Assembly (NCBI GenBank): GCA_050084515.1
Contig: CM114271.1
Span: 16,864,001-16,928,000, forward strand
Length of the DNA: 64,000 bases
From: Blasia pusilla
Taxonomy: Eukaryota
Direction: 5' to 3'
The notes beneath the pieces are model-generated. The model saw nothing but the letters and a program-made list of their open reading frames with translations. It did not search any database and was not told where the DNA came from. Below are positions 1 to 50,332 of the stretch, piece by piece (positions within the stretch are counted from its first letter, which is position 1; each line of letters starts with the position of its first letter). Made by a program: the position numbers and the translations under genes.

Positions 1-459
1 GGAAACCTAGACCAAACGCGAGCCAAGACTTGAGAAGAGTTGAGTCTTGGAAGGTTGGTTGCCAAAGAGGTCAGAACCAATTTTGGAACACAACTAGCGT
101 TTGGGGAATTTGGCTGTGTTTTAGACCATAACATTTAGCCCCAAGATTGGTTCAAGACAAACAAGAGCTCGTTGGAAAGCTTATCTTGAGACGTTTCCAA
201 CGCACTAAAGATCTTAGCAAACACATAAGTACAGACTAAGATATTGGCTGAAAACAACTGTGAGAGCAATCGGGTTGAGGGCCAATTGGAGAGGCCTGGG
301 TATCTTTCCATAAATCTAGGGAACCCCGGAGATCCCCATAAGTACTAGTAAGGAAGGAGTCTCACCAAGATATCTTGGAACATGAATCCCCACTTTGAGC
401 ACCAAATGGCGTCTCAGAGGCACGGGATGAAACGGGAGTTTGGCGTTGGAACTTGTCGT

Positions 460-582
460 ACGCATACACATTGCTCCACAACATACATCGCTGTCACCGA
501 GCACACACACAACCACGCATGATCCCATGCTAACTCATGGCATTCAAACAACGAGACAAGAAGTACCAAAATATTTCCAATA
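460..582 (-). repeat. LTR-end fragment, second copy of ~1108-1228
   Basis: cacacacacaaccacgcatgatcccatgctaactcatggcat...acaacgagacaagaagtaccaaaatat..ccaat occurs at both ~500-580 and ~1150-1228. Confidence 0.75.
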
Positions 583-1107
583 AAATAAGATCAAATCTCT
601 CTCTCAACACTATAGTTCTCACATGTGTGCACTCTCACATGTGTCTCTCAATATCAAACCGAACCCACTCTGCTAATGAGAGGCTTGGGTTACACACACA
701 AGACAAGCAAGACCATAACTCCGCCGCCTCATGCCAAGCGGTTCAACAAAAAAAGAATGAGCTCTTAAGCTCTCTCTCCTTGAGGTATACCCCTCCCCTC
801 TCCCAAGCTCTCTCCATGGTAACCTATGCTCCCAAGTCACCTCCTTGGCTCTTGACCTGATGTAGGAGGTCAAGGGCTAATAACCAAAAATAGAAAGTTG
901 ATCACATACTCAAAATGGTACTTACCTAAAATAGTAAGTTCCTCAATATGGCTCCAAATGAGCCGAAACGAAGGGAAAACCTACTCTCTCAAGTTTCCCG
1001 ATGCCTCGATAGGTCATCCTCAACCTACTGAGCCTGTCCTCCGCTGCTCATGAAGGCGCTTTACTAGATCCCACCGATCTATCCTAAGAGACGTGATAGT
1101 TATCGTG

Positions 1108-1240
1108 CGCATACACATCGCTATACAACATACATTGCTATCATCGAACACACACACAACCACGCATGATCCCATGCTAACTCATGGCATCCAGACAACG
1201 AGACAAGAAGTACCAAAATATCTCCAATCGCCCCCCTAGC
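1108..1240 (-). repeat. Start of 3' LTR plus polypurine tract (minus strand ctaggggggcgattgg)
   Basis: Lies just downstream of INT-PHD; the same PPT/LTR junction recurs in the second family copy at ~14535-14550. Confidence 0.7.
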
Positions 1241-1408
1241 TGGTGGTTAGGTCCCTCTAACTCCAGATAGCCATCTATCCCTACCTATCATGACATACAT
1301 CTCTCGGACGCTAAGAGCAAGAAGGCCGGGTGGTCATGTGGCCCCATTGTTAGTCGCCTTCTTATCATCCATGTCATAGACACAAGTCAGAATGTAGAAC
1401 TACCTACT

Positions 1409-1555
1409 CTATGTACATATGTGACACATCCATCGTCCTTGAGGAACCCTAGTGAGAGGTGGCGTCAAACATGCCATATGCCATCCTCACGAACACCCAT
1501 CAAAGACTAGCATAGTGGCTGCACCACGAGCGGAACCACACAACATACATCGCAA
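1409..1555 (-). pseudogene. PHD finger at integrase C-terminus
   Basis: Reading through the TGA gives CMLCGSARGAATMLVFDGCS*GWHMACLTPPLTRVPQGRWMCHIC: C4HC3 pattern (third Cys mutated to Phe) with H..CL.PPL...P.G.W.C..C. Confidence 0.88.
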
Positions 1556-2917
1556 GCCTACACAAACTATTGCTAAGCTCGGATCAACTGTACCGTCAAT
1601 GTTTGGAAGATGACATGGCGCACAGTTACGCACATGGTCCTTCCAAACCATACCATCGTGTCCCTCCAATAAGAGAACACTGGATGGCAAAACCTCATGC
1701 ACTCTCAAGATGGTGCGCCCTGCAGTCACAACCAACGTCGTGGATGCCATCTGCTGCAAGTAGATATAATATCCGTGATGAAACCTCCAGATAGTAGGTC
1801 GATAACCACCTCCACGAATAGTCGCATACCTCAACGTATCCTGATGTTGCACAATCGCCAAGTTTTCAAACGCCATGGGCATCACTCTCCAAAACAACTC
1901 AGCCCTCTCAAAATATGCTCACATCCATACATTAGGGTCATCAAGGTTCAACACCTCACCAGTATCTCGACGAATGGTCGTAGGTAAATTTGGCTCTCGG
2001 CCATAAAGCAACAAGTACGATGAGAAAGACGCCAAGGATGCCTCTATGCTGAATCTGTATCCCATCGCCAACCACAGCAACTCAAAGTCCCAATCTCCTA
2101 GGTGATCTCTCTGCAAGCCATACTTGCGTAGTCCTCTCTTCACCGTCTGCACAACCTGCTCTGCTAGTCCATCCGCCTGAGGATGATCTCGCAAAGTAGT
2201 GCGGTGATCAATCAATGCCTGATCACACAAGGCCTGAAACTCCCTGCGGAACTCTCTACCCTGGTCTGTCAACACCTCAACTGGTGCGCCGTAATGACTC
2301 AACACTCGATCTAGGAAGGCATACGCTACTCCCTCACTCGCTTTGTCAAGAAATGCATCCAACTCTATCCACTTCGAGAAGTGCTCGACCATCACCAACA
2401 CATAACGACTATGGCGCTCCGTCAAAGGCAAAGGTCCTGCAAAATCCAAACTCCATCTATAACCTAAACCCATTATCGGAAGTGGATGCAACTGTGGAGC
2501 TGGAGCATTGAATAATGCTTAGACTCGATCACATACCATGCATCTGGCAACAAACTGTTGAATGTCAGTCTGCATGCGTCGCCACCAATACTGAATCTGG
2601 AGCAAGCTATATGTGTGCTTCACTCCAAAATGACCCAACTCCTCGTGGGCATGACGCACCAAACGTGCTCTCTGCAAAGGATGAGGCACTACACGCACTC
2701 CACCATCCTCCCACACTTGCAACATATGTGTACCCTCCCAACGGAACCGTCTGGCTCGCTGTAGGATCCAATCCCGCTCTCTAGCACCCACTGTGCTTGC
2801 GACGCTACCGGTACACAGGTAAGGCAAGACCACTCCATCGTCGTGAATGTCTTGGCCACCTGTCGTCTCCTCATTGGCCTCTGGATCTAAGGACTCTCCA
2901 TCAGACCTCGCCATCAA
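1556..2917 (-). pseudogene. Gypsy integrase (HHCC zinc-binding domain, DDE core, C-terminal region)
   Basis: HAHEELGHFG...CMVC; WSLDFAGP, VLTDQGREF, HPQADGLAE. Confidence 0.93.
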
Positions 2918-3028
2918 AGTCTAGCAATGTGGCTCTCCATAGCCCAACAAGCCCAAATAGGCTTACGCATGCCATCATGAAACCAACTCCTCATCACTCT
3001 CACCATGCCAACGAGCTCCAGTCGCATC

Positions 3029-3720
3029 TCACTGACTCGAGCATGGGTTACATCTCAAACCATCTGCATCCTGGTTGAGCATCCCAGGTCTATGCACCAC
3101 CTGGAAGTCATACTCTTGCAATAAAAGAGCCCACCTTGCAAGCTTCCCTATAAGCTTGTCGGACTCTATCAACCACTTTAGTGGCTGATGATAAGTAATG
3201 ATGGTAAAGGGATTGCCGAATAGATAACATGTGAAATGTGCGACAGCCCACACTACAGCCAAGCACTCACCCTCATAAGAGCTATACTTTGCCTCTGCAG
3301 CATTGTTCGAGCGACTAGCATAAGCCACCATGAACTCTCTACAATCATTCTCATGCTGGATGAGCACGGGTCCAAGCCCCAACATGCTCCAATTGGTATG
3401 CAACTGGAAAGGACGACCCCTGATCGGTCTCCTCAATATGGGCACAGATGTCAATCTCTCCTTGAGCATCTGAAATGCTCTCTCTTGCTCATGCCCCTAG
3501 TACCACTCCTGATCCACCTTGGTCATCAAGGTTAGCGGCTTTGCAATCAAACTGTAACCCTTGACGTACCGTCGATAGAAGCTCGCCAATCCCATGAATG
3601 CACGAACTCGACTCACATCTGTAGGGCGTGGAATGCGTGAAATAGCCTCTACCTTCATTTGTTGCACACCAAGGCCCCTAGGGTATATCGTATGACCCAA
3701 GTACTCAATCCAGTCGTAAA
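3029..3720 (-). pseudogene. RT connection domain and RNase H
   Basis: VRAFMGLASFYRRYVKGYSLIAKPLT; PFQLHTNWS, VAYASR, YSSYEGECLAVVWAV, LARWALLLQEYDF. Confidence 0.93.
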
Positions 3721-4400
3721 AGAACTTGCACTTGCCTCGTTATAGCTTCAGCCCATGTAACTGCAATTATCGAAACATCTCCTCTAGATGTCGCTCATGC
3801 TCCTCAACTGTGACGCTAAAGACTACGATGTCATCAACATAACACCTAGCAAAATCCAAACCTGCCAAGATCTTATCCATGACCCTCTGAAACTCAGCCG
3901 GGGCGTTCTTTAACCCAAATGGTAAGAACCGCCACAGGTACAAACAATCCTTCCCGTGAGGATTGATGCCCCAAAATTCCATCTTCTGCCTGTCCTCTAA
4001 TCTGATAGGCAGTTGAGGGTATCCGACTCGCAAATCCAATGAACTGAAGTCCTTTGCATGCCCAATCGCATCAAAGATCTCATCAGGGGTGGGCATGGCA
4101 TACCTATCGGCCTTTGTCTGCCGATTGATAGGTTGGTAATCTCCACACATTCGCCTATCCGTCTAGTTGCCATGCACATCCTTCTTGGCGGGCATGATAG
4201 TGGCAGATGCATACTCTCCATGCGACATCTCCACTAGTCCTGCGCCAACCAAGTCCTGGCTCCTACTCTGAATCAGAGCCCTCTCCATATCACTATACCT
4301 CTAGGGTCGTCGGGAGATCGGCGTGTCACTTGACAGCTCAATGTGGATCCTTGGACCCTTAAGCATACCCAAATCATGCATACTAAATGCAAAACAACTC
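3721..4400 (-). pseudogene. Reverse transcriptase
   Basis: MCGDYQPIN, FSSLDLRVGY, LPFGLKNAPAEFQRVM, CYVDDIVVFS. Confidence 0.95.
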
Positions 4401-4794
4401 CTATAACTCCTAAGGAACTGGTGTATCCGACGCCGCTCTCCTCCTATCAGCTTAGGGTCCATATCTGGCTCCTAAGTCTCCATCGTGACTACGATAGGAC
4501 TCTCCAGCACGGATGTTAGTGGTTGTTATGCTGTAACCCCGTCTCGGACTATAGAACTCCCATCTCCACGTGCAGTACCCGAAACCACGCTCGATGGTGT
4601 GGCTATTATCTCCTGGCGTACCTGCAAAACATCCCAAAAAGGCCAAGGTTGTCTCTCCCGACCAACCCTGGTGTGTTGATCTCCTCCGGTCTCGCCCCTT
4701 GCCACTACCTCAATCGTCTCCGTAGGCATAGGGCTCACCAACGCAACAACTGTGATCTCTCGCATCCTCAAACGATGTTGCTCAGCTACTCCTA

Positions 4795-5758
4795 AGCTGA
4801 AAATCCATGTCAAGCAATTCTGGTCCATCGCCTGATCCAAGAGATGACGTCGTGATGCTACCGATAGTGACGGTATTGCCATCACTCTTGTGGGGAATCC
4901 CATCGCTCGCTCTCACACATCGGCGTTGGGCTCCTCCAACCTCTGTACCTGGTCATTCCAAACCAAGCCAGGTCCGGCCTCCTTGAATGCATAAGAAGCG
5001 GGAAAACTCACCAATGTGGGAAAGGCGGCTTGTGGCATGCCAATCCTGTTGACCACAATCAACGGCGGTCGATCATCTTGCCTCACTGCCTATGATCGAC
5101 GGCCTGGATCCAATATAGAATCCACCAACAAATCGGAGGGACACTCCACTCTCGCATAAGCCCACCGCAATACCTCATGTGGTACCAAGTTGGTCCACCA
5201 AAGACACGGGCGATGTGCTCGTGAATCCACACTCGCTGCATCTAACAACACTACCAGGCCGATCCATGCGCGCACCTGATGTGCACTCATCACCACACGG
5301 GACCTCGAATCATCCAAAATTGGCACATTCTCCAAAATGTATGCTCGAGAACGAGATTGATGCACATGTAAATGTCGCAAGATCCGCATCATCTCCCAAA
5401 ACAACCTGGACTGAGTGTTAGCTAACCCCCTACCTTGTCCAACACTCGATTGGCCCTGACACGGCCAACCAGCAATGACCAAGTCTATGGTCTCTACCCT
5501 CTCCAAGTCCTGCGCCCCCAAGAATGAAATGTCCCTCGGTAGGGAACTCTCATAACCCTGAATGGCAGACGCAGACAACAAGTCGGGAAAACAGAGGCGT
5601 AATAGCGCCACATGGTGAAGTGAAGCGCGCCTCACAACATCATCAATCTCCACATATAGGTACTGTTGTACGCGCACTCTAGCGTGCAAAAAAGCAGCTA
5701 ACCCACTGCTAATCCCTCCAAAGAGATCCAACACCCAAATACCCATCTCGAGATGCAC
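4795..5758 (-). pseudogene. DNMT3-like DNA (cytosine-5)-methyltransferase catalytic domain embedded in the retrotransposon pol region
   Basis: Motif I VLDLFGGI, II YVEID, IV DLVIAGWPCQG, VI ILENV, VIII AHRPCLWWTN. The same frame continues past two stops to IX ERAMGFP and X RRHLLDQAMD (ORFs 5090-5758 and 4526-4903 are in frame). Confidence 0.92.
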
Positions 5759-6119
5759 TACACAATTGGGGTAGTGTTCAAAGGGACCATAGAAGAAATC
5801 CTGCCTACCTGGGATTCCTCTGACCCGTCACACTCTAGTGCAAATTTCTTGCTCCACGCGATCTGCACATGCTAAGTGGCTAAGCGTGAAAGCTCCTCAC
5901 TCGAGCCCCAAAGCGGCACCTCTCCTCCACGAACTGATGCGGCTACCATGACTTTTCTCTCCATAGAAATCTCAAGAACGGGAGTATCCTCTGCATGGAC
6001 ATGTCCCTCAATCAAATCACTAGGCCAAGTGATGGCACTAGTAAATGCTGCTAAGGTCGCCATCTCTTCTGGCCATTGCTCGATCACTGCACATGTGAAT
6101 CGAACGGGAAATGAGCTAA

Positions 6120-6591
6120 GGCGCCCATCACCTAACTGTCATCTTCGTCTGTAGGACGTTGACTCCTCCCAGTAATCCAGAGAAAACCCCATCAGGTAAA
6201 ACACTACTCCACCAACCAAGACGTCGTAGGACTCTGCATGAGTCACTATCACCTTGGCTCGCACCACGGACTCATCTGTAGGATGTCCCGGGCGAATCCT
6301 TGCCACAACCTCCTGTCGGGTGATATACTATGTGGTACTCGCTACACCCAAGGATGTCTATATCCAGAATGGACAACGCTCCACATTGGCTCTCGTTAAG
6401 CCCAATCCTCGGAATGACGCTTTCCCCAACATCAGGGGTTGTGCTCCTGAATCCAACAAGACGTGTTGCGGACTAAAAGCTCTACCTCCGCGACTTATCA
6501 ACTGGAAGACCTCTTTCTGGTTATTTAGCAACACAACACCAAGAGAAACCATGGCACACTCTATTGCGGGTCTAGCGGCCATCTCCGCCAT
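6120..6591 (-). pseudogene. Retroviral-type aspartic protease
   Basis: HVLLDSGAQPLMLG catalytic D(S)G motif; a YDVLVG-like C-terminal motif near 6200-6230. Confidence 0.82.
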
Positions 6592-7109
6592 CCTAGCAGC
6601 CGCAACCTACCATGAATCTGACGTGGATGGCCTGAGCATCCGCTCCAAGGGCAGGTCCATCACATCCCCTGCAATCACCTTTGAACGTGATGCAAGAACT
6701 CCAACTCCATGCTCACATAGCGTATCGGCCAGCCAAAAAACCTTGACGGGCGTACCTCCCAACGTCATAACATCGGAAGTATAAAATAAAGGAGCACGGT
6801 ACACATCGGTGGCCGACCCCAACAACGTGCTTGACACATGCCCCTCCTGAGCATCAGCAATAGGAGTTGTCGCACTCGCTTCTCCCATCGCCCTCCATGC
6901 TTGCACACCAACAACATCACCAACTCTCCAGGAACTCTGATCAAGACCCATCGAGGGGGTCCTCATCGCCTCACACAACGTGAAAGACTGAGGAAGCCTT
7001 GTCTGTTTCCTGGCTTCCCCTTGCTATGGATCCCACTCTGAAGCAACAAGTAATAGTAGGCAGCTGCTCCTGAGGTGCCTACTATTACACTGGTGATGCA
7101 ATCACGATT

Positions 7110-8345
7110 TCTTGCATCACCAGTGCAGCAATGTGGACTCCGAGATAGGTGTGTGGCACCACGAGCTCAAGGAGGATACCGAGAGGCCGTGCCATAGAGA
7201 CCTGTGCCTTCATATGCGGCTCAGGAGCAATCGTCTTCGATTATTTGTTGGGCATGTGGTGGAGTTCATCACCAGTGCTATTGCACTCGTCAAGGTCATG
7301 GACGCGGGCCTCAGCATGGAGAAGGAGATGGTGTTGCACCAAGACTTTATCATTGTGATTATTTTTAGAGATACAATCACTCACGCGCCAGGTGTTTCAG
7401 CCTACACCCTGAGTTACGTCCGGACCGAGGGCTAGAGAGGGCACCAAAGCAAGTTGCCAGTCCGGGTGGGCCTAGTGGTCGTGCACTAGGTGGTCCCATT
7501 GGGGGACGAGGAGCTGGATTTGCCTGAGGAGGTGGTGGAGTTTCCCGTGGAGAAGATAGAGTTCCACCACCTAGATGCGTCGAGGGAGACACCCAGCGTG
7601 AGGCTGGGATGGCTACTCAGATACAACTACTATAGCAGCAGATTTCCGCTATGGCTTTGAGGTTAGCCGATGCCGGAGCCATGGCATCAACGGCTTATGG
7701 AGCTGTGAGAGATATGGAGGATATTGGATGGATGTGCGCGACTGTCTAGTTGGAGGCAATTGTTGTTGTTACACGTGGAACTGCTGTGGAGTTGGATCCA
7801 CAGGGGGGGGGAGCCAAGAAAAAAACCATGCTTCCTTAGTCTTTCACGTTGTCCGAGGCAATGAGGACCCCATCAATGGGTCCTGAGTAGAGTTCCCAGA
7901 GAGTTGATGGTGTTGGTGTGCAGGCACGGAGAATGATGGGAGAAGCGAGTGCGACGACTCCTATTGTTGATGCTTGGGAGGAGCATGTGTCAAGTACGAT
8001 GTTGGGGGCGGCCATAATGGTGTACGGTGCTTTGCTTTTTTTTGCTTCCGATGTTAGGACGTTGGGAGGTACGGGCCGCCGAGGCTTTCCGTCTGGCCAC
8101 TACGTTATGTGAGCGTGGAGATGGAGTTCTTACATCACGTTCACAGGTGATTGCATAGGAGATGATGGACATGCCCTTAGAGCCGATGCTCGGGCCGTTC
8201 ACTTGAGATTCATGACAGGTTGCGGCTACTAGGATGGTGGAGATGCCCGCTAGACCCGCGATAGAGCGTGTCATGGCTTCTCGTGGTGTTGTGTTGCTAG
8301 ATAACTGGGGAGAGGTCTTTCAGTTGGTGAGCCCAGGAGATAGAA
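7110..8345 (+). mobile_element. Opposite-orientation fragment of the same Gypsy family (gag zinc knuckle to just before protease)
   Basis: HCDYF*RYNHSRARCFSLHPEL degenerate CCHC knuckle at ~7351-7420; 7790-8345 aligns with the reverse complement of ~6480-7040. Confidence 0.8.
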
Positions 8346-11300
8346 GGATTATTATGATGAGAGAAAAATTTGGTGCTTAGTGGGGCAAGCATTGAGCTTC
8401 TATTGATTTGCTAGATAGGCCTGTATCTATTTCTGGTTAAATAGGTTGCTTATGTTAGTTTTTGTTTAATAAACTCACAAGTAACAACAAATCTCAATTC
8501 ACATATCATGCATCTATGTATTAGATCCTATTGATAAGCAAACAATGAATGACTGAATGTACATGATAACATTTTGAATATTTTAAGATGTACATACACG
8601 TATTAAGCATAATTTTGAGTTACATTTTTTTTTGAGTGAGCATTTTTATGCATTGATTGTTACAAGTAGTGATTGTATGGAGTAGGCTAGGAGGCCCATA
8701 GATAGGCATAATGATTTTATACTCATTTAAGATTCAATTCAATATGGAGTTGGTTGTTGTGGGTGTAGGGGGTAGACTAGGGGGGTGATGGATTGGAATA
8801 ATAATTTTATACTCATTCAAGGGTTCAATTACCCTACATCATAGAGTAGTTTGTTGTAACTAATAGTCGACATTGTGACCTATACCCTATTCATGACCAT
8901 ACTTGCTAGAAATAGGAGCTTCTCTTTCCAAGGGTCTTTCTATTATTGTACAATCTTTACTTGAAAAATTTTAGGGATCCAAATTTATGGATTTGGGACA
9001 TTTTGAAATTAGGAAATGGGGGAAAACTTTTTTGGAGTCTTGGAAACAAGTTTTAGGGTCCATACGCTAACAATTTGCATGTGATGTATAGGTGTACATA
9101 TAGTGACCTCCCATTCACCACCAACCCTCCATATAACCACTCACCTCATTGTCCGTTCATGCCTAATCAGCCACTAATGTTCATATAAGATCCCTTTCAA
9201 ATTATTAATTGCAGAATTTGTTGAAGTGATTTTTTCGACCATTTTCTATTTCATTTGGCGTTTACAAACAACTCTCTCCTATATTCAACCAACCATTCTT
9301 CACTTGCAATTTGTTGAGAGCAACTTCTTCTCCTCACATAGGGGCCACTCCCACTCATTTCTACATTCTTTTTCTTTCATGTGATTTTTTTTAATTCTTT
9401 TGAAATTTGGTTTTAATAATAAATGAATGCTATATCTAACTTTAGCAATAAACGTTCCACTTTAAATGCATTTAGCATTTCTAATTCGAAGTATGGGGAG
9501 TTTTTTCGTGACAACCGGAACATTTCATTCCAACCGGCTAAACAGATACGAATACAAAGGACACCCTCCTTGAACCCTCGGTTTTTGGCCGGTAAGTGAC
9601 TACCTGAATCAGAAATTCTCAAATTCTTCCGGCGAGCTCAACAAGTAACCCCGGACATTGCATGTGGGTGATACTTTCCATAAAGAAGAAGAAATTTTCA
9701 CACAAAAGACTTGAAAGTGTGATTCCACAAAGTCCACCCGGCTGCCTTTCTAGAACTTCAAAACTTTGTCTCTTCCTTGCGACGCATGTCGGTGGAGGCG
9801 CTTGTAACCATGAGAAGACAGTGTCAGATGCATTCTTGTAATGTTACGGATCACTCATTCGTCAGGAGCCGGTGTCCACTCATGGTCAGACGGGACAGCT
9901 CAATCGTCATCTATATGTTGGTCCTCAACAGTTCGACTCAACACAACACATGTGGGGCGCTACCTCCAATTTACATGTGTCATAATTCACGCCAGTGCAT
10001 AAACACGGGTGAAAATCACCCCAGAAAAAAAGTTAGGCTCAATTTACACGTGCCATCACGGGAGGATGGCATCTTCAAACCCCGTCCTCTTTTATTTTAA
10101 TCATATGGATTGTTAATCTCTACACGCTTTGCACCTACTGACGTGTAGAGCGTTCGCTGTTGGGTTGGGGGTGTGTGTGTGGGTGGGGGGGGGAATGAGT
10201 TTCCGCTCCCGACTACAGGTCCTGGCCGTTGCTGCCGGGGCTGGATTGTGGAGTTTAGGCTCCAGGATAGGAACTTACAGCATATGATTCCGGTGCAGAG
10301 CGTTCGCTGTTCGAGCGAACTCCAATCGGGTCTCGCGAGAAATCGAATCCAGTTTTCCGCGCGTGCTATCGCTTGGTGTAAGCAAATGGTATGGCGAGAA
10401 CGGGCTGAAGGGAATACTGTGTTGGAGCGACAGTCAATTCTCGGTTCCGAGTGCTTGTGACATCAACCAATCAATAATCATGACTACACCCGTCCGTCGC
10501 TCTCTCGTGAGGTAAGCTGCTATGCTACAATATTTCCCGAGCTTTTAGGTTCTTGGAAACTGGGATTTGCAAGGACGCTTTGGCTTGATGTAAAAGACGC
10601 GGATGTGGAGTGTGTCTTTGTTGACCCCGTGATCATCATGGGTGCTGTTTTCGGTTCTCTCCATACAACCTAGTCGACTCCATTCTCCGTTCATCATCTG
10701 TGCGAACAATCTTCCCCAATTTTTGTTCCCGTCTGCGAAGTGCTTTTATAAAAGTGGTTGTCAAAGCTCCTTTCATAGGGAAAAAACCACGGCGGTTCTT
10801 TCCTCCTATTCTTGAAACCTGTACAGCAGAAAACGTACAAAGAATGGATTGAAGGGAAATTTCCGTAGCCTGGAGACAAAGGTTCAAACGTATACACAAT
10901 TAGAAATCTGCAGGACGAGTGTACTGGTGACGGAATAACTGCTTTCACATAGGAGCACATAGAGTCACTGGTTCTCCAGACAGGACGTATTCCGAGCGTA
11001 TGATTGAACGATTATGTACCTAAAAGTTTGATAAAATTCCATCAATAGTCAAGTGAGTGCGATCTGCGGTCGAATGGTGTTGGAGAGTGTTTTTCTTACA
11101 TCTTTCGTGCGGAATCAGTACGAGAGGGGCAAGAAGATTGTCACAGACGTCCTAAAAGGCTTCCAACTCACTCTCTCGTGATTCTCCAAAGAATCCAGGG
11201 TCGTCGCAGTTTCAATTTGCAAGATAAGGTCCACTCAGAATCGGACATTTCGTTTGTCTGCAGCGAACAGAAGAAGCTCTTTGCATGGGGTTGAATCATA

Positions 11301-11546
11301 CATAATCTTCCAATATTTGCTGAGGAGCATCCCTGATGAGTAGAGAGAGCCAAAGTCGAAATTTTATCTGCAGAATGACATGTCATTGAACCATTCCAGG
11401 AACTGGATATCAGCGTGTTTCTTCGTAGTGCTCACCACGAGACCTTGCGTTGGAAAACTCTGAAGTTTTTCGCCTTACAAATTCGTGTGCGTAGGGCAAC
11501 TCAAATTTGGAGACAAACAAGGAAACAAGCAGTCGCAGTTCCGGTT

Positions 11547-12772
11547 ATGCAACGACAGATGTCGACGTCAACAGACTCTGAGTCTGTCGTCCAAAAGAAG
11601 TATTTTCCCATACACTTTCTTTACTTCCCGATACTCCATGAACTACGTCAGATCCTTCATTCTGTCACTGCCGTACATATGCATGACGTCGCACTTTCTT
11701 CAGCTTTTCCTCCCTGAGCGCCCATCGTGGCACAGTCCAACAAGTTCGGGATTCTCGTTATGCAACAGCGGATGTGTCGAAAGAGTCTCAATCCTGGCCA
11801 GTGATACGCCCCGAAAGGCTACGACATCATCCCTGTCTCTAAAGGATGCGTTGTCACCATTCAGCCCTGATTCTCTAGGCAGAAAACGTGGGTCTGATGT
11901 AGGTCGGAGGAAAATGTGAAAAATCTAATGGATGATGTAATGCATCTGCATCGAGCAGGCTATTGGGGAAGGTGGCAATCGTAACTGGGTCAGCTGGGGG
12001 TATCGGGGCGGCCACTGCCAAGCTATTCGCAGCTCACGGAGCACATGTCATCATTGCAGACATCCAGGACGAGCTAGGTGGAAAGACTGCCCAACAAATC
12101 GGTCCCAAAGCGCTCTACCGCCACTGTGACGTCACACGAGAAGAGGATATCTCCTCAACAGTGGACTTCGCCGTGAAGGAATTCGGCAAGTTGGATATTA
12201 TGCACAACAACGCGGGCGTGTACCCTGTTGAGGAAAATTTCTGGACCTTAGACATGAAAAATTATGACCAGGTTACGGCAGTCAACGTGAGAGGGGTTGT
12301 CATGGGAATAAAGCATGCCGCTCGAGTCATGGTGCCTGCGAAAAAAGGAGTCATTCTCAACACCGCCAGTATGGCTTCGGTTTGCACCGGCAACATTATG
12401 TCTCTCATCTACAACATCAACAAGATGAATCACCCGGGTCTGACGAAAGTGGCGGCGTTCCATTTGGGGAAGCATGGAATTCGGGTTAACTGCATCTCTC
12501 CAACTGGTATACCCACAGACATGTCAGACGCTTTGCTCCGACGGTCTGGCATTGTTGACTTAGTCGACCTTACGGATGTGTACTCGAAATCGTCGTGCCT
12601 TGAGAACAGGAGCTGCACACAAGACGACTTTGCCAAAGCTGCGCTGTTTCTGTGTAGCGATGATTCTGGATACATCTCTGGTCATAACCTGTTGCTGGAT
12701 GGTGGCCTCACTAATGTCACCTCCTACGACCCGTTCAACTTCGGAGAACCCGCCAAACTCAGAGACGTTTGA
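11547..12772 (+). CDS. Short-chain dehydrogenase/reductase, plant ABA2/secoisolariciresinol-dehydrogenase-like; exons 11547-11599 and 11959-12772
   Basis: TGSAGGIG, NNAG, catalytic Ser (NTASMAS), YNINK (YxxxK), IRVNCISP. The GT-AG intron joins AA|G to give K-LLGKVAIVTG, the usual intron position in this family. The start codon is inferred. Confidence 0.92.
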
Positions 12773-13609
12773 TCAATCCCTCCCTCCCCATCCGAATCCG
12801 CAGTTTGCGACTCGCGACATGGCTATGCCTATTTCCTGCCTGTCAAACACGTTGTTCAGACTGACAGCACAATTCTACTCCATCGCTCGGGCTAATGAAA
12901 CGATGAAAGTAATACGATCGTAATAAAAGTGGTCCGTTGATGAAGGCGGCAAGGATATGCTCCAAGAGTTATCGGGAACTAAGTAGGGACGATTGTATTT
13001 ATACGCTACTTGAAGTTTGATATTGTGCTCAGTGCGGAGTTCAACCTCATTCTGAAGTTTAGTCTTACTCATTCATGTTTGCCGTTAGGATTATTGTGAG
13101 CTTTTGAATGAGCTTTATTCATGTGCACGGTTGCTTGGAACTCTGCAAGTAACTCTAGCACTCTAGCATCTAGAGTTGCTATGCCTATTTACTAATGTGA
13201 GCTACATAGATACTAGCCCTATGCTTTGGTCTATTTTAACTACCAAGCTTGTACACTCTTAAAGTCCAAGTTTTGGTCCAACGGACCAAATTTGGTATGT
13301 GTGAACAACAATGGAAGGTTGTTTTTAAGGGTTTGGATTAGAACCAAGATAGCACCCCTCAACTAGTTTTAATTGAGATTCTGACCCCAAGTGTAGCATA
13401 CCTCATTCTACAACATACCTACTTCTACCACACATAATATATAGCCGGTGCATGGCGATCAAGATGTGTCACTTCACTTGGGAGCGATTAACCTCATTTT
13501 TTAGTAGGTGAGGCGCTTGAGGTGTGCGTTCACCGGAGGGGTAAAATTGAGTCGAAGTTTGCAATAAAAAGTTGAAATAATCTTTCTTTGATTTGTTTCA
13601 TCACTATGT

Positions 13610-13728
13610 TGTACGACTACACATTAATGCCAACATATATTGGTTGTCATACACACACATGTCTAAGATCCATCTACCTCATATGAGTCCTAACATGTCT
13701 ACGCATGAACGAGTGGACAACCCCAACA
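13610..13728 (-). repeat. LTR-end fragment, copy of ~14440-14538
   Basis: ggttgtcatacacacacatgtctaagatccatcta...ggacaacccca shared; this copy starts with canonical TG on the minus strand. Confidence 0.7.
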
Positions 13729-14329
13729 TAAAGTTGAATGTAAACTGAAAACTATGATGAAATATACAATCAACCATGCTTCATCTAAGCATCCATATCC
13801 ATGAATTATATACACACTATTGTAATACCAGGAGAAGGTGTACAAAGGACTCCCAAAATGTGTATGATCTTTGATCAATCCTACCCCACTCTTCTAGAGA
13901 GAGTCTAGACTCAATACATGCAAGTTGCACGGTATCACGGACCCAATACGGGTTTGATCTTGAGGAAGATGAGCTCCAAATGAGCTTTCTCCAAAGTCCA
14001 TCCCCTTGGGCACCTCCCTGGGTGATTTGTACACACAAGTCACTTCCTCTCTACATGTCACTAACAACATGTATTACGCGAGTACCAACTCCTTAACAAC
14101 TACACATGTGGTCTCCTCATGAGACTAACTATCAACTAACCCACAATCCTATAGGTTCAAGTGGAGCCATACATGGCTAGGAGGTTCAACCTCTCCAAGG
14201 TTGCCACTCCTCATAAAGGGAAGGGTGACCTACACTCGTAGGTCACCTCCTAAGAGCAAGTGACATATGACCTCTCAAAATTGGGAAGTACAAGACCCTT
14301 CTAAGGCCTTGATAATATCTCTTCTTACA

Positions 14330-16390
14330 CCTCATCTACCATGACAACTATCGTGCGAATACACATTGCATGGGAATATGACCGAAAGTCTAGGGAGCAA
14401 CACGCTCTTCCTTTTCGAGTGGCTTCGCCTGGCATAAGTCCTAATACATCGGTTGTCATACACACACATGTCTAAGATCCATCTATCTATTGACCCTAAC
14501 ATCTCTATGCATGAACATTTTCAATTGGACAACCCCAATCGCCCCCCTAACTGGTCGGTTACGTCCCTCTTACTCGAGATAGTCTACAAAAAAAGTCTAA
14601 ATGCTATGCAGCTTTTTGATGCTAAGATCTGGAGATCGGGTGCTATGTAACCCCATCATAAGTCACTTACCTGCAATCCATAACATCAAGAGTCATCTTG
14701 TAATCTACTTATCACACCTATCTATGTACATCTGGGACAAAGCCAACATCCAGGAGAAACCAAGTCAAGAGGCGGCGTCAAAAACGACATATGCCATCCT
14801 CGAGAATACCCATCATAGACACTATCATCGTGGTTGCTCCTCTAGCATACCCACACAAGATGTATCTCAAGCCAAGCTCAGCATTGTGGAATACACATTG
14901 CATGTTCTCAGCCCACTGAGAACACGTTTGTACCCATACGTGTGGATCGTCGAATTGAATTCCTCAACCCCATCTCGTTGAATAGATGAAGACAACTCCG
15001 GCTCTATCCTATAGAGCAAGAAATAGTAAAAATGATGCCAAGGATCCTTGTCATCCAAAGTGGTAACCCATCACCAACCACCGCAATTGTAGGTTCTAAT
15101 CTCCCAAGTGTCCTCTCTACAGTCCAAACTTGCCCAATCCTCTCTTCATCGTTTGCCAAACCATTTGGCTCCGAATGATCTCGAGAAGTTGTACAATGAT
15201 CTATCAATGCCTGATCATACAAGGCCTCAAAAGTCACCCCTAAACTCAATATCCTGGTCTATTAACACCTTTGCTAGTGCACCAAGATGACTAAGCACTC
15301 TATCAAGAAATGCATAAGCCACTCCCTCACTTGACCTATCCGGAAATGCTACCAGCTCAATCCACTTGGAGAAGTGCTCCATCATGACCAACACGTATCG
15401 ACTATCGCATCATGTCAATGGTAAAGACCCTGCAAAGTCTAAACTCCAGTGAGACCCTAATCCTATGATCGGTAAAGGATGCAAGTGTGGGGTCTGAGCA
15501 TTGAACGATGCCCGCACCCTATCACATACAATGCATCTAGCTGTAAACTACAGAACATCAGTCTATAGACCATGCCACCAATATCGAATCGGAATCAAGT
15601 TATACATTTGCTTGACTCCAAAATTTCCTAACTCCTCGTGAGCATGTCTCACAATACCTGCTTGCTACGAAGGATGCGGCACCATCCGCACTCGTCCATC
15701 CTCCCAAACTCAAAGCACATGTGTCCCCTCCTACTAGAATCTCTTGGCTTGTTGTAGGACTCAATCCCGCGCTCTAGCTAAGACACCACTGTGCAGGCAC
15801 TCCAAGACCATCTCATCGTCGTGGATGTTTTGGGTCCCTGTCGACTCCTCACTGGCATCTGACTTTGAGGACTCACCATCCAACCTCCCTCCTAGAGTGG
15901 ATACCCCTACTGACTTGACATAGTCAACATACACAAATAGGTTGATATATGCATGCTAACCCTGCACCATCTACTGATCACTTTCACCATACCATCGGGC
16001 TCTAATTGCATTGCTCTAGCTCGTACATGGGTTACGGCTCAACCCGTCCGGATCCTGGTTTAGATGTTTTGGACAATGGACAACCTGAAAATCGTACTCG
16101 CGCAACAAATGTGACCATCTGGAAAGCATCCCTATAAGCTTATTAGACTCCATCAACCATTTGAGTGGCTAATGATTAGTGATGAGCATGAAAGGGTTCC
16201 CAAAAAAATAACATCTGAAATGGGCCACCGTGTATAGTGCCGCTAAGCACTCCCCCTTGTAAGAACTATACTTCTCCTCCCCAACATTGTTCAAGAGGCT
16301 TGCATATGCCACTACGAACTCCTTCCCCTCATCCTCTCTCTGAGTGAGCACCGCTCGTAACCCCAACATACTCCAGTCCGTATGAAAAAG
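14330..16390 (-). mobile_element. Second degenerate copy of the PHD-bearing Gypsy family (RNaseH-INT-PHD-PPT-LTR), 5' truncated
   Basis: HTDWSMLGL...VAYAS...YSSYKGECLA RNase H; integrase collinear with 1900-2950; PHD remnant GWHMSFLTPPL...WLCPRC at ~14722-14870; PPT aggggggcg at ~14540-14548. Confidence 0.9.
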
Positions 16391-16638
16391 GAAACAAAAA
16401 ATGAGATGTTTCAAATGAGAGAAATCACAAGTGTAATTGAATCGAGAATCGTGGGCCCATAACCTGTGATGTAGCAGACGTGTGATAATGTGAGCAGCAC
16501 ATACTCTCCAATACGTGAATACGCACTCTTTGCAAGAACATGCATCTTTTTCAATATGTATTATTTCTCGTTAGAACAACATGACGTATCGCTCTTTTAT
16601 CCACGACAAAACAAGATAGTCCTACTAGGAGCCAAGTG

Positions 16639-17899: not shown

Positions 17900-19973
17900 A
17901 GACGTTATGTACCCTATTAGGATAGATCTTCAATAATTCATAATCTTACAAGTACTGAATGAATGTAATTTTCTCAAGACTCGAAGGCCTATTGGAATAT
18001 AATTAGTAGGATATATGCAAGGAACAGATGGCATTGCATTCTTCTAAAGGAAATTTCTTCTACATAATGGGTTACTATCAATGTAATGTAGAGCTTGGGA
18101 TCCATAAATTATGGGGATTTGTAGATAGGCAAGCGCAGCTTGAGTGGAAGACACCAAGCAATTTAAGATGTATGTGTTGGTTGCTGCACCATTGGATCGA
18201 GATAAGATTTCAGAGCGGCATTGAGATTCTATAGGATTTGTGTCTCCCACATTCAAACAAAACATCGCGATTGCGCATCCGACAAGTTTTTTTAATTATT
18301 CATTCAATGTGAGGCTACGTGAAGTGATAGGATTAGTGTCCTTCGTCCTTTTGAATCACCAGAAATTATCTTAGTAAATGACCTAACTACAGAGGAAGTT
18401 CTGCTATTTGAAAAGATAAGACACATGTCTTATGGGATAGTCATGATTTCACGACCATCTGGCTGCGACAAGACATTCTCCATTCACTTCATGCAAAAAT
18501 ATTGGAAGAGCGTGTCACTGCCTTATTTACTCACTGCCACTACTAGCATTGTTGCTATCCGTTTGCACAATATTACAACTACTGTCCATTCAACCTTTGC
18601 CATAACCCTACGAGGCAACTTACCGTCTATGCATACATCATCCGAACAATACTATCGGCTAAAGGAAGCAAGAGTTGTAGTCATTGATAAATGCTTTATT
18701 GAAGATTGAGTTACAATCAAACTCATAAGACACCTGAACTGCCACATTTGGTACTCGCACAAAGTAGGGAAGCTTAATCTTGGTTAGTCACTTAAGCACA
18801 ATTATCCTAACTAGGGTTAGTTAATCACGGTTAGTCTAAATCGAGACCATGGTTAAGGGTAGGGTTAAGGTTGCTTGTACATACCCTATATAATTGAGAA
18901 AGGACCAACCTCCACTCAATTTCTCTCATTGCAAATTTCGTTCTCCATGGTGGTGTGTGTGTGAGAGTCGTTTTCCACCATTTATGCTTGTTTAGCAATT
19001 TTCCACATGCTTGATGCTCACCCCGCGTCTACTCCAGATAATTGCTATGAGATTGTACCAAGTACTCCCTTCAACTAACCTCAATCCCTTCTCAGATAAA
19101 CTGCTTATATTGGTAGGGGATCTTTGTCAATTACCTCCTGCATGCCGTCATAGTTGTGACACCCTTTGTTCATTATGTCCTACATCATCGTCACCATTCT
19201 ATTCTACTATGACAAAGTGCCATCTATCTATTGGAGTCAAGCATAGTTCATATCTCGTATCTTTACAGTTCCTGCATCAAGTACGCGTTGCACCACCTAC
19301 TCAGTGTGAAATCGATCGGGTCCTTTGTGATTGCTCCACAAATGAGATCGACGCCATTGATTTCTTAGATAGCAGTACTCCAATCATCTGTTCCCATTGT
19401 GTTGATGTCCATCTTTTTAACCTTATTATGCTTAAGAGGTTGTATGGTAGTGCAGAAATATTTCCCATTTACATTTCTACATATGCTCCTGCTGATGTCA
19501 ACATACAGCAGTGGCTTGGAGATGATGCCTTCCATCAGGTCCAATTTTTGGCAATTGGCTGTAGGGTATTACTTACATCCAACATCGACATTATCAACCA
19601 GGCAGTTAACGGTGCATCTACCACTATAGTTGAATCCATCTACGTTGTACAACAACCAACAACCATTATTGTTAAAATAGACTCAAACAATAAACATATT
19701 CATATCACAAGAACAAATTGTGCCACTCTACGTTATGATGCACAAAATAAATACCATAAGAGCATATTTCCTATTTTTTTAGGGTATGTCATGACCGATC
19801 AAAAAAGCCAATGTCTAACGGTTCCTACAAGGTGTCTACTTGTTCTTAAGAAAACATTTGCACCCGGCCTTGTGTACGTTATGTTTTGGAGAGTGAAAAG
19901 GAGAGAGCATCTATTACGCATTCTAGGGTGTTTGGTGCCCTTTGATTTTATTGTCTTTGGACAGGTTTCTTGA
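17900..19973 (+). pseudogene. PIF1-family helicase, probably the helicase half of a Helitron RepHel, degenerate and split by an insertion
   Basis: Eroded Walker A (RPSGCDKTF), TATTSIVA, TVHSTFAI, VVVIDKC(LML), GDLCQLPP, VLLTSNID...VNG, FPIFLGYVMTDQKSQCLT, FAPGLVYV..RVK. Confidence 0.88.
18697..19007. mobile_element. 311-bp solo LTR inserted in the helicase
   Basis: Perfect 5-bp TSD tgctt (18692-18696, 19008-19012); TA(TG)...CA termini; internal ccctatataa TATA-like box; removing it restores the frame. Confidence 0.85.
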
Positions 19974-20559: not shown

Positions 20560-20889
20560 CAAGGTTGCATGTAGACAATGTCCGTTTCCGTAGATATGTC
20601 AATGTCTGTGGACTTATGTCCATCCTATGGAAGGACTTGTCCGTATGGACCCCACCTTTCCCTTCTTTCTCATTCCCCTTACTTGCCGTAGTGTTCCATA
20701 CTCTCCCATTTATTCCTCCCTCTACCTCCACTCCCTCCTTCCTCATTGCTCCTCTCATCCTTACCTTGCCTTCCATCATGGCCTAAAAGTATGGGTCCCA
20801 CCCCTTAGGGCCCATGTTAGTGGACAAGTCCGGACTTTTCCGTCCATGTCCGTCCTAAGCAAGAACTTGTCCATTTTTGTGCAACCATG
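20560..20889 (+). mobile_element. hAT-type MITE (330 bp)
   Basis: TIR caaggttgca...tgcaaccatg; 8-bp TSD gctacatc/gctacacc. Confidence 0.88.
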
Positions 20890-23800
20890 GCTACACCTTC
20901 CTTATTCTATTTTATTTTCTTCATTCTTATGTCTATTAAATAAGTAATCCCACATTTTCTTTTTTTTGCATCGGATCACTTATTATTCACTCTATTAACC
21001 AATACAGATATCGTGAAAGAGGTGATGACTTTCAAAGGGTCGATTTCAATTAAAATGAGCTCACAAGGCTGCAAGCGGAAGCTCACTACAGCCGATTGAC
21101 AGGTGGTATTAAGGCCGACCAATTTCAGGAGTTGAGGATCATCATGAGGCTACCACTCGAAATGCTGGTATACTTTTCGTCCTCCATGGTTGCCCACCTC
21201 CTTGCTCGGCTCCGTGATGCGCGTCAGGATGGAACTCTCTCAAATATCCCAGATCCGGATCATCAATACAATCTCACACCGCAAGTGCCACATACAACGC
21301 ACCTCTGTTACCTAAGTCGCTAAACAAGCGCAAGTGTGCTTTAGGTTAGATGCATAGTCCGCACCTTTTCGTCCTTTCTTCGTGTTTCACAAATTTTCAT
21401 TCACATTCACTACATATATCTGCGCACTCACAAAACATGTTACTTTCTGTTTCTACACTCCACTATATTATGTGGAGTGTAGCTGCTTGTGCCACGTGCA
21501 ATGTGGAGTCTTCATCTAGCCAACTTTATTTTTCTAGCTATCTCTGCGGATCCTATTACACTCTGTCGTTGTTCCATTGTAGCCTTTTTGTATTTCCCGA
21601 CTACAGAGATATCCCTTGTAGAGAAACACTATCCATGTTCACGGTCTAATTTTTTTAGATTCAACTATTGATGGAACATAGTTGTTCTCATTATGATGAG
21701 CCACACTTACTGGTTCTTGTTTGTATCAATTGATATGCAGCATTTTTCTAGATAGTCATGACAGATTCTATTCCAGCCATTTTGGTATTCAAAAGCTCAC
21801 ATTTTATTGCGAATTACTTGGAGACATATGTAACTTCAAATATGAACCACTACATATTTTGAATGTCGCTTTCCGTTTTACTGCATTCACTTTTATCTAA
21901 TTTACAATTCCATCTGACCTAACATCTGCTACTACATGCACATTAATGGCCGAATTCTTATATATATTTGCTCCAGTGTTGTTGGGTATTCATTCTCTTT
22001 TTTTCATTGTGCATTTCTCAATGTTCTATGCTAGCTCCATGTCTTTTTTGAAACCTTTGTTGCTTTTTTTTGCTGCAGAGAAGAGTATCGCATCTCCAAT
22101 CTGCACCTGGGAACAATCGCATACAACGCAGGCTACGTGCAACTCGTGATGTGCTGACCAAAGGAAAGGGCCTACTTCAAGAAGCAACTACTCTTGTTGA
22201 AAACAAGACACCAAGGCCAACTCGAGCTAAGCTAGTTGGGAGGTTTCTATTTGAGGCAGCACTTAAAAATATCCATACTTTGCACGACCAACTTGCAAGA
22301 AGTGAATCAAGTAACAATATACTACAAAAAGTGATGTCGTTCATGACAGATGAACACGGCTAGAATTTAGCTACTATACTCATTCTACAAGACCGCCTCA
22401 CTGATTTCTATTAAGTTGTTAAGAACCTGCACCAATATTGTTCCGAGAACTATCCTACAGACACAGAACTTGCTTCCCATTTGTGTAGCTTGACAGATTT
22501 GTGTCCACATGAGTAGTTCAACTTTTCAGTTATGTCGTGATATGATATGCATTCAGTCTTACATCTCTGTAACACAGTAAAATCTTGTTTTCACTTAGCT
22601 ATCTTGTGGCAAATGTGATCGTCTTAGCTTTAAGTTACATTCGGCTATATAATGTACTAATTTGATCTTAGCACTACCACATCATACTTCAGCTACGTTT
22701 GAATTTTGAGCATATATTTTTCTTAACTCACATATTAGGTTACAATAGAATTATTCAACATATCTTGACGCACAAATCGACCTTTTTCATGCGTCAAGAA
22801 AAAGCTCTTACTGTTAAGAAAGCATGTATGTTATTCCACTCATTGTCGACAATCTTCACCGAATGGGTATACTCATTCTTCTACTCACTAAAATTTCATC
22901 TAGTCACAAAGTTCAATGTGCTTCCAAAAAACTATTGTAATTGCTCTGTGTTTTGTTTTTCCAAATTTTGTAACTCTAGAGTCATGCACTTTACTTCAAG
23001 TTTTTCATTCTACACTCTCCTACTTTTCTGATGTCTTCTCGTTCTAGAGTTCCCGTTCTAGTACTCCATCTATTGACCAGAAAACTCATCAAATATATGC
23101 GATTTCCATTTAACACAATTATAGTTCTCGTTGGCTGTACATTCTTACGCCACCTAGCCTACTCATACTCTACTCTATCATGCAAATAATTCACTCGCGG
23201 AACACGGCATCTACAATGGAAAAACCACCAATATCAATAGTTTCATACCACATGTTGGGCAAAATATTTCCGTCAGCTTCAAAGGCATTTCAGTTCACAC
23301 CTTACGAACAGTATGCATGAAATAAGTAATAGCAGCCATGAAGATGACACCAATTTATTTTACTTCTAAAACTAAACGAACACTAGTACCCATCCAACTA
23401 TATTACTTTTGATCTGAATAGTCGTTACACTTTTATCCCCACCTACGCTACTATTGGAAAATTCGTATTGATGTAGAAAACCGTGAGTCTATTCATCACA
23501 AGTCTGGGCCGAAAACTTGTTTTATCTAACCCTTCAAGGCCTAGGCAACATGCTTTCTTTGTATCAAAATCAAGTGAACTTGTTGATACAAAGAAAGCAT
23601 GTATTCTACAGTAGAGAAATAGTTTTGAGACAGAGAAGTTCTATTAGACCATATATTAGCTTAATGTTAAGGAGACATGGGGAGTGTACCCACAAATCTT
23701 ACAGGCAAGTTATACATTTGGGAGTTACTGAAGGAGGCTAGAATAAGGCAGAGGACTTGACATCAACCTCCAGCAATCTTCTACTAGTAAGTATCCTTGC

Positions 23801-25326: not shown

Positions 25327-25658
25327 CATGGTTGCACAAAAATGGACAAGTCCTTCCTTTAGACGGACATTGACGAGCAAGTCTGGATATGTCCACGAAC
25401 ATGGGTTCCAAGAGGTTGGACCCATACTTTTAGTCCATGATGGAAAACAATGCAAGGATGCATATGAGAGGAGCAATGAGTGAGGAGGGAATGGAGGTGG
25501 GGGGAGGTGGGGGGAGGAAGAAATGGGGGAATATGGAACACGAAGGCAAGTAAGGGAAATGAGAAAGAAGGAAAAGGTGGGGCCCATACGGACAAGTCCT
25601 TCCATAGGACGGACATGGATATGTCCACGGACACGGACTTTGTTCACATGCAACTTTG
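25327..25658 (-). mobile_element. hAT-type MITE (332 bp)
   Basis: TIR catggttgca...tgcaactttg; perfect 8-bp TSD atgggtca. Confidence 0.92.
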
Positions 25659-50000: not shown

Positions 50001-50332
50001 CAAGGTTGCATATGGAAAAAGTCTAGGTCCATATAGACACATCCATATCTGTGGACTTACGTCTGTCTTACAGAAGGACTAGTCCGTATGGGCCCTTTCT
50101 CTCCCTTCTTTCTCATCCCCCACTTGCCTTCGTGATAGGCTTTTTCTCGTTTCTTCCTCCTCCCAGCTCCACTCCCTCCCTAATTATTCACCCGCCCATC
50201 CTTGCCTTGCCATCTACCATAATTATAAATGTGGGCCTCATCTTTTGTAATCCATGTTAGTGGACATGTCCAAACTTATTTGTTGACCATGTCCGTCCTA
50301 GGGAAAAACTTGTTCATTTTTGTGCAACCATG
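50001..50332 (+). mobile_element. hAT-type MITE (332 bp)
   Basis: TIRs as in the other copies; TSD cccaaggc/cctagggc. Confidence 0.85.

Follow-up and report, generated by a model that had tools for sequence, protein, structure and literature searches.

In the charophyte Klebsormidium nitens, Dnmt3-related domains lie in the pol open reading frame (ORF) of a Gypsy element, for which methylation of the element's own cDNA has been proposed (de Mendoza et al. 2018, PMC5890265), and in Symbiodinium the SymbioDIRS-Dnmt3 element bears a Dnmt3-type domain that methylates CG de novo in yeast (PMC5890265). The wording 'streptophytes (Gypsy-DNMT3)' is found in a 2026 preprint (10.64898/2026.05.21.726589) and in PMC12344493. 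Here we describe an element of this type in a stretch of 64,000 nucleotides from the liverwort Blasia pusilla (contig CM114271.1, positions 16,864,001 to 16,928,000; this whole stretch is referred to as the window). It is highly probable that this is a dead, 5'-truncated copy of a liverwort Ty3/Gypsy element, and that the polyprotein of its family includes an integral DNMT3-like C5 cytosine methyltransferase (MTase). Like KnitGypsy-Dnmt3 of Klebsormidium, the window MTase is intronless, unpermuted and Dnmt3-related, keeps its catalytic residues and is located in the pol ORF of a streptophyte Gypsy element; the two are likened by description. KnitGypsy-Dnmt3 is present in few copies in an alga (PMC5890265), in contrast to a family of about a thousand copies in a land plant. 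As in SymbioDIRS-Dnmt3, a Dnmt3-type domain is carried by a retrotransposon, but the Symbiodinium element is a DIRS with a tyrosine recombinase in a dinoflagellate host, and the window element is a Gypsy with a DDE integrase.

The Ty3/Gypsy pol order of protease (PR), reverse transcriptase (RT), RNase H (RH) and integrase (INT) is present in the window, as identified by Pfam, translation and tblastn, and the element is supported as a Ty3/Gypsy long terminal repeat (LTR) retrotransposon with the MTase built into pol between PR and RT. MTase, RT, RNase H, integrase and a PHD finger form a single minus-strand frame running from 5827 to 1490, with 1446 codons, 15 stops and no frameshift. Upstream of the MTase, a separate minus-strand frame (7044-5761; six stops) encodes the end of gag, up to its C terminus, and a protease with the DSG signature; Pfam gave no matches on these decayed protease and gag pieces. 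The layout of the family is very likely gag(CCHC)-PR-MTase, then an in-frame stop with the hexamer CARYYA, then RT-RNase H-integrase-PHD. The parts of the window element are as follows.

4772-5743, minus strand: C5 cytosine methyltransferase domain, DNMT3-like (Pfam PF00145, PDB profile search, AF2, Foldseek, VIA)
5744-5760, minus strand: site of the single change of frame from gag-PR to MTase-RT-RH-INT (tblastn with Marchantia P0158)
4520-4528, minus strand: candidate leaky stop between MTase and RT, TAA at 4526-4528 and then CAACCA, which fits CARYYA (stop at the ORF1 end of relatives)
6142-6606, minus strand: aspartic protease, DSG at 6445-6453, two internal stops (translation; aligns to the PR of P0158, P0184 and P0186)
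6610-7044, minus strand: gag, C-terminal part (tblastn with P0158, P0157 and P0156)
3500-4471, minus strand: reverse transcriptase (Pfam RVT_1, E 1.1e-17 on 3767-4162; in the frame of the MTase)
3032-3496, minus strand: RNase H (Pfam RT_RNaseH, E 6.2e-32)
1922-2920, minus strand: integrase, H2C2 zinc domain and DDE core (Pfam Integrase_H2C2, E 3.1e-16; rve, E 5.7e-12)
1415-1549, minus strand: PHD finger, C-terminal end of the integrase (Pfam PF00628, E 1e-7, 32.3 bits against a cut-off of 24)
1409-1411, minus strand: pol stop
453-1228, minus strand: 3' terminal block, preceded by a purine run at 1229-1243 (direct repeat of 129 nucleotides at both block ends)
7204-8344, plus strand: inverted partial copy of the same family, from the gag CCHC knuckle to the start of PR (repeat comparison and tblastn)

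A sequence-only reading of this DNA had listed C5-MTase motifs in one intronless frame on the pol strand, between the DSG protease and RT, and all of them were located: motif I LDLFGGISSG (5702-5731), motif IV GWPCQG (5453-5470), motif VI ILENV (5324-5338), motif VIII DAASVDSRAHRPCLWWTN (5189-5242), motif IX ERAMGFP (4892-4912) and motif X RRHLLDQAMD (4823-4852), all in the minus-strand frame. That reading had placed the domain at 4795-5758, where it does lie, but its extent is slightly larger, at about 4772-5743. The motif order I, IV, VI, VIII, IX, X is unpermuted, unlike that of DRM and as had been claimed, with no intron-like break, and two stops fall within the domain (TAG 5090-5092 and TGA 4913-4915). 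The hidden Markov model comparison that had been proposed as a check gave a match to Pfam PF00145 (E 2.4e-11, 44.1 bits against a cut-off of 22), and relatives match it too. The catalytic signatures LDLFGG (I), GWPCQG (IV), ILENV (VI) and SRAHR (VIII) are present, and in a 30-row alignment with a mean identity of 27% E166, R206 and N213 are invariant and C123, Q124 and N167 at least 90% conserved, all of them kept by the window copy.

Searched as a single sequence against the PDB, the MTase matched DNMT3A first (E 1e-7), then DNMT3B/C, DRM2 (0.009) and bacterial enzymes. A profile built on 30 family members gave DNMT3A at 1.8e-25, DNMT3B/C at about 5e-22, tobacco DRM at 1e-15 and DRM2 at 1e-12, with M.HhaI (7e-9) and DNMT2 (6e-5) further down and no DNMT1, CMT or DNMT5 chains at or below 0.01. 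An AlphaFold (AF2) model of the domain had a predicted local distance difference test (pLDDT) of 91.3 and a predicted template modelling score (pTM) of 0.90; among the Foldseek matches listed for it, up to rank 49, all were DNMT3A/B/C. The VIA fold scan, which is independent of Foldseek, gave Z scores of 28.7 for DNMT3B, 27.8 for DNMT3A, 25.7 for M.MpeI, 23.1 for M.HhaI, about 22 for DNMT2, 19.5 for DNMT1, 19.0 for DNMT5 and 18.5 for ZMET2, and confined the alignment of DRM2 to residues 13-158 of the model. The proposed resemblance to DNMT3 is therefore borne out by sequence, profile, Foldseek and VIA alike, and DNMT3A/B/C are supported as the nearest solved relatives of the modelled domain. 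The mammalian enzymes DNMT3A, 3B and 3C (PDB 2qrv, 6u8p and 4u7t) are its best matches in both sequence and fold, and share with it a short target-recognition region between motifs VIII and IX and the AHR...W.N of motif VIII. Unlike them, the window MTase has no PWWP or ADD domain and sits in a retrotransposon polyprotein. At the level of individual motifs, motif VIII (AHR...WW.N) and motifs IX-X align to DNMT3A, and motif IV reads PCQ and not PCN.

The MTase has 2030 relatives in a representative protein library at E <= 1e-3, 160 of them at E <= 1e-30, and many sit inside proteins of 1000-3400 residues; matches on this scale lie far outside what chance would give. Mapping of PR, MTase, RT, RH and INT on 205 fetched related proteins revealed two layouts, PR-MTase(-RT-RH-INT), as in the window, and RT-RH-MTase-INT. 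In a tree of 178 MTase domains the two layouts are two clades (support 98), and layout and tree agree fully among the rows with an assigned layout: the clade with the layout of the window has 73 rows (58 of PR-MTase-RT type, 14 unassigned and the window itself), and the other has 105 (79 of RT-RH-MTase-INT type and 26 unassigned). A second tree, of 50 of the 178 rows, shows the same split (support 99), and in both trees the window clusters with Marchantia polymorpha gene models and the metagenome protein P0156 with a support of 100. M. polymorpha supplied 14 of the 56 matches in one search, at 48-60% identity, and one of these stands for 18 near-identical sequences; the other named hosts of the PR-MTase-RT layout are Calypogeia fissa, Sphagnum fallax and four Closterium strains. 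The earlier view that such elements are no standard feature of land plants needs correcting for liverworts, in which the element type is common. Among 30 relatives whose names were looked up, ten were named (eight Closterium, one Calypogeia and one Scenedesmus). Open full-length CCHC-PR-MTase-RT-RH-INT polyproteins are seen in P0017, P0184, P0186 and P0192, of which P0184 has a C-terminal PHD finger. The RT-RH-MTase-INT layout is found in chlorophytes, in a Scenedesmus 'pol' and a Cymbomonas protein; in members of this clade (P0007, P0015, P0026, P0121 and about 80 others) the MTase between RNase H and integrase is often accompanied by a PHD finger. There was no Klebsormidium among the named relatives, and most relatives are nameless. 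A profile search for longer proteins gave 27 matches, two of them new (P0328 and P0329), with neither Klebsormidium nor host DNMT3 among them. All relatives that the protein searches returned are of transposon type.

The abundance and expression of the family in this genome were estimated from about 1% of one whole-genome run and from three RNA runs of the same organism, mapped to positions 1-13000 of the window at 80% likeness. Summed DNA depth was 2026-2247 in the two MTase bins, about 3300-3800 over RT, RH and INT, and 0-2 over the unique flank at 10417-13000; as a rough figure, given a single-copy depth of only about 1, the MTase-bearing family numbers on the order of a thousand copies. 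Most of the mapped DNA reads (123,115 of 166,612) are less than 90% alike to the window copy, which indicates that the family is old and diverse. RNA depth over the MTase was 36-74 on one strand versus 0.35-4.3 on the other, and reached 317 in the bin 869-1302. The plus-strand gene for a short-chain dehydrogenase (SDR) shows the opposite side and so calibrates the strand of the library, and the RNA of the element is therefore sense. Members of the family that carry the MTase are transcribed. Two properties of these data speak against the reading of a uniformly MTase-bearing, expressed family: depth over the MTase is just about 0.6 of that over RT and INT, so that some copies may lack the domain or the domain may simply be more diverged, and RNA depth is a sum over about a thousand copies, with most reads less than 90% alike to this one. 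Two joints inside the element, at 3289-4366 and 787-1282, occur in RNA only; they leave out 1076 and 494 bases, lack GT..AG ends and are seen in 3-13 reads of each run. Their source may be members of the family with deletions, or template switching.

The position of one stop suggests how the MTase may be expressed in intact members. The TAA at 4526-4528, one of the 15 stops of the window frame, stands at the point where many proteins of relatives end: among 38 proteins of the PR-MTase clade with the MTase as last domain, 27 end 61-179 amino acids past it, with similar tails. A metagenome scan with a second alignment (A2) gave four loci, including L001, L002 and L003. In L001 and L003 a gag-PR-MTase ORF is followed by a single TAG and then by an RT-RH-INT ORF in the same frame, and in L002 the same TAG ends the MTase-bearing frame. 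The six bases after the stop are CAACCA in the window, CAGTTA in both L001 and L002, and CAATCA in L003, such that CARYYA fits four of four. The codon after Gln varies (Pro, Leu, Ser), and this difference in the second codon points to conservation of CARYYA at the level of RNA. UAG followed by CARYYA is the type I readthrough signal of tobamoviruses (PMC5382211), in which a stop with CARYYA likewise stands between an upstream product and the polymerase. Unlike the tobamovirus case, the carrier here is a retrotransposon and not an RNA virus, and the window copy has TAA. An in-frame stop with CARYYA between MTase and RT would make the MTase the C-terminal end of a Gag-PR ORF1, and the family would then consist of ORF1 (gag-PR-MTase), a candidate leaky stop and ORF2 (RT-RH-INT-PHD), some members apparently being fused into one ORF. 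This interpretation is weakened by the TAA of the window, as the type I motif is defined with UAG, which is present in the three metagenome loci; by the close kinship of L001 and L002, which makes the four stop contexts fewer than four independent cases; and by P0184, P0186, P0192 and P0017, which have no stop at that place.

The window copy itself is dead, as the sequence-only reading had concluded from its stops: it lacks its 5' part and carries 20 disabling stops as well as one frame change. In a tblastn comparison with P0158, residues 459-873 align to 7038-5761 and residues 880-1245 to 5743-4622, leaving six residues opposite 17 bases. The frame change at 5744-5760 thus lies a few codons upstream of motif I, and 1103 genome reads leave the window sequence at 5744. 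Intact relatives hold PR and MTase in one ORF, which marks the frame change as a mutation specific to the window copy. Truncation within gag, at about 7044, has removed the first ~460 residues of gag together with the 5' terminal repeat. Beyond this point the partial copy is arranged head to head with the main element (inverted repeats 6481-7045 on the minus strand and 7782-8344 on the plus strand, 80-83% alike). This arrangement, or a similar one, is present in the genome reads, of which a few connect 6495 with 8329 on opposite strands. The window has A/T where family reads have G/C at 417 of 730 listed differing places, against 88 in the opposite direction (run X14), and the observed/expected CpG ratio is 0.68 in the element compared with 0.84-0.89 in genes nearby. 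This A/T excess and low CpG resemble the C-to-T decay expected of a methylated, silenced copy, and such decay would explain why there are many stops and almost no indels.

At the C-terminal end of the integrase, the PHD finger has as its nearest PDB sequences those of PHF12, KAT6A, DPF3, KDM5A/B, CHD4, ATXR5, AIRE, PHF21A and UHRF1. Most PHD fingers of these proteins have the unmodified tail of histone H3 as their ligand. Relatives P0184 and P0007 have a PHD finger at the same place. The element in this respect resembles chromoviruses, which are Gypsy elements with a chromodomain on the integrase (introduction of 10.64898/2026.05.21.726589), in that a histone-reader module is found at the C-terminal end of its integrase; unlike chromoviruses, its reader is a PHD finger, and it also carries the MTase.

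The evidence for LTRs in the window consists of the 3' block at 453-1228, as the 5' end of the element is missing. This 776-nucleotide block (1228-453) has direct repeats of 129 nucleotides at 1100-1228 and 453-581, 91% alike, which flank 517 nucleotides, and a second fragment repeats the layout (14444-14538 and 13635-13726, 83% alike). Both family fragments of the window thus have the order coding-B-A-B, with the 5' A copy absent. Figure legends in PMC5890265 give A-coding-B-A-B repeats for DIRS and Klebsormidium elements, and the order in the window may correspond to the 3' half of this layout. No terminal or B-A-B repeats were present in metagenome loci L001 and L003. At 1096-1103 about 840 genome reads per side diverge from the window; their loose ends are AT-rich, and those of one side are nearly the reverse complement of those of the other. 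It seems that most other copies have an AT-rich palindromic insert here that is missing from the window copy. The second related fragment (14907-16393, minus strand) contains RH-INT only, at 58-73% protein identity to the main element; its short direct repeat flanks about 700 nucleotides after pol (13635-14538), and its upstream part is replaced by other sequence.

That the MTase is an integral part of the element has to be weighed against its being an accident of one copy, in which a retrocopy or gene fragment of a host DNMT3 was inserted into a single Gypsy element. The copy is rearranged, 5'-truncated and flanked by an inverted partial copy, and genome reads diverge from the window at 5744 and 4564, near both ends of the domain, as an insertion might produce. 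However, the 5744 break coincides with the small length change of this copy and 4564 lies within a variable linker, the MTase is in frame with RT-RH-INT without any indel, the region 4300-6100 has no run of A or T of at least seven, and no 9-mer is common to both flanks of the MTase. With neither a poly(A) nor a flanking duplication of its own, the MTase is not a separate retrocopy, and other copies of the family carry it at the same place, among relatives as well as genome reads, both of which agree with the sequence-only reading of a domain belonging to the element. Its presence at the same position in 58 related proteins from several genera, and the ~2000-fold read depth over it, make such an accident extremely improbable. 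The MTase may alternatively be a true part of the element but derive from a bacterial, viral or other eukaryotic C5 lineage and merely resemble DNMT3. PCN in motif IV may be a mark of the whole DNMT3 family, and the PCQ of the window and of the family consensus, which differs from the PCN of the DNMT3A alignment and is that of most non-DNMT3 enzymes, counts against a DNMT3 origin. So do the identity to DNMT3A of just 20-23% and the small fold margin over the bacterial CpG methylase M.MpeI (25.7, near the 28.7 of DNMT3B), and the DNMT3 placement is one of similarity ranks and not of position in a tree of reference families. The 2026 preprint (10.64898/2026.05.21.726589) further groups other DNMTs from retrotransposons, in Cymbomonas and in Euglena, with DNMT4, for which there is no solved structure to compare. 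In the profile search, on the other hand, DNMT3A, DNMT3B/C and the DRM enzymes were far ahead of M.HhaI, and DNMT1, CMT and DNMT5 fell outside the threshold; motifs VIII and IX-X align to DNMT3A, the Foldseek matches listed are all DNMT3, and the published Klebsormidium elements were themselves assigned to Dnmt3 (PMC5890265). We therefore regard a non-DNMT3 origin as unlikely.

A tentative scheme, which we put at somewhat below even chances, is that the MTase serves self-methylation of new copies. ORF1 would yield an abundant Gag-PR-MTase product, and a minority of ribosomes would read through the leaky stop to add RT-RH-INT-PHD. The MTase could then be carried with Gag into the particle or pre-integration complex and methylate new cDNA or the integration site de novo, such that each new copy would be marked on arrival; the integrase PHD finger may steer integration to chromatin with unmodified H3 tails. 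Enzyme activity, readthrough, substrate and PHD ligand are all inferred in this scheme. A different function, in which the MTase no longer methylates DNA but in intact copies binds DNA or chromatin, tethering the particle or guiding integration together with the PHD finger, would be in keeping with the PHD finger occupying the place of the chromodomain in chromoviruses, and with the yeast test of the Klebsormidium Gypsy-Dnmt3 domain, which gave no methylation (PMC5890265). This result also tells against self-methylation, but it was judged inconclusive by its authors because DNMT3B failed too (PMC5890265). Clades with a mean identity of 27% have retained the Cys of catalysis, the Glu of ENV and the Arg of motif VIII, which is hard to explain without catalysis, and a pure binding function consequently appears improbable to us. 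Self-methylation may also be set in a wider history of green plants, comprising an old Gypsy lineage with its own DNMT3-like enzyme, fixed as PR-MTase-RT among streptophytes (Closterium, liverworts and Sphagnum) and as RT-RH-MTase-INT among chlorophytes (Scenedesmus and Cymbomonas). In liverworts this lineage would be thousand-copy and transcribed, would produce its MTase at the level of Gag from an ORF1 that ends in a leaky stop of tobamovirus type, and would bear on its integrase a PHD finger that reads H3 tails. Taken in all its parts, this history is possible but rather doubtful.

The remainder of the window contains genes and other repeats. The SDR gene (11936-12772, plus strand) is an intronless ORF whose five best named matches are from Riccia, Marchantia and Calypogeia at 57-62% identity; that all of these are liverworts agrees with the land-plant host that had been presumed. 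RNA reads skip 983 bases with GT..AG ends at 10509-11493 on the strand of this gene (plus), whose leader probably includes an intron, with a further exon upstream. A hAT-type transposase in several broken ORFs lies at 40829-42269 (minus strand; DUF659, E 7.7e-36; hAT dimerisation domain, E 2.9e-11). Two genes for amino-acid transporters (Aa_trans in Pfam) lie at 53565-55938 (plus strand) and 62853-63907 (minus strand); they have introns, opposite orientation and very similar exons, and are probably a local duplicate pair. There is also a long ORF of 325 amino acids without a Pfam match (18323-19973, plus strand), a repeated ORF family with a common 'GLVRM.PTF.FF' stretch (20594-20947, 25324-25953 and 50229-50802), and a GC-rich, proline-rich stretch open on both strands (30806-31561). 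Pfam gave no matches for the ORFs 18323-19973, 25324-25953 and 30922-31548.

Gypsy-DNMT3 elements appear so far to be in print only from algae, and the window element would be a land-plant member of the kind published for Klebsormidium. The openly accessible literature that we searched reports them neither from liverworts nor from other land plants, and the supplementary trees of PMC5890265 and PMC12344493 may include bryophytes. The main text of PMC5890265, in the portions available, makes no mention of a PHD finger, a chromodomain or Marchantia; a leaky stop was not among the points looked for. Three features appear not to have been published before: the copy number, the PHD finger and the candidate leaky stop, by which the MTase would come to lie last in ORF1. 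As far as the literature found reaches, the transcription of the family and the split into two layouts across green plants are new as well.

Retrotransposons equipped with the class of enzyme by which hosts silence them have been known from dinoflagellates and one charophyte alga, and are now seen in a land plant, in high copy number and transcribed. Close relatives are present among the public gene models of Marchantia polymorpha, for which genetics, methylomes and transformation are available, and the benefit that a transposon draws from a DNMT of its own can therefore be tested directly in a tractable plant. Two more testable handles, on enzyme stoichiometry and on the targeting of integration, are offered by the candidate leaky stop and the integrase PHD finger. 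The Marchantia gene models carry the annotation 'hypothetical protein' and may inflate gene counts and DNMT inventories for this liverwort. If the enzyme is active, a land-plant retrotransposon would write 5-methylcytosine on its own new copies or on host DNA, and this, if true, could be one source of the de novo methylation seen in the genomes of bryophytes.

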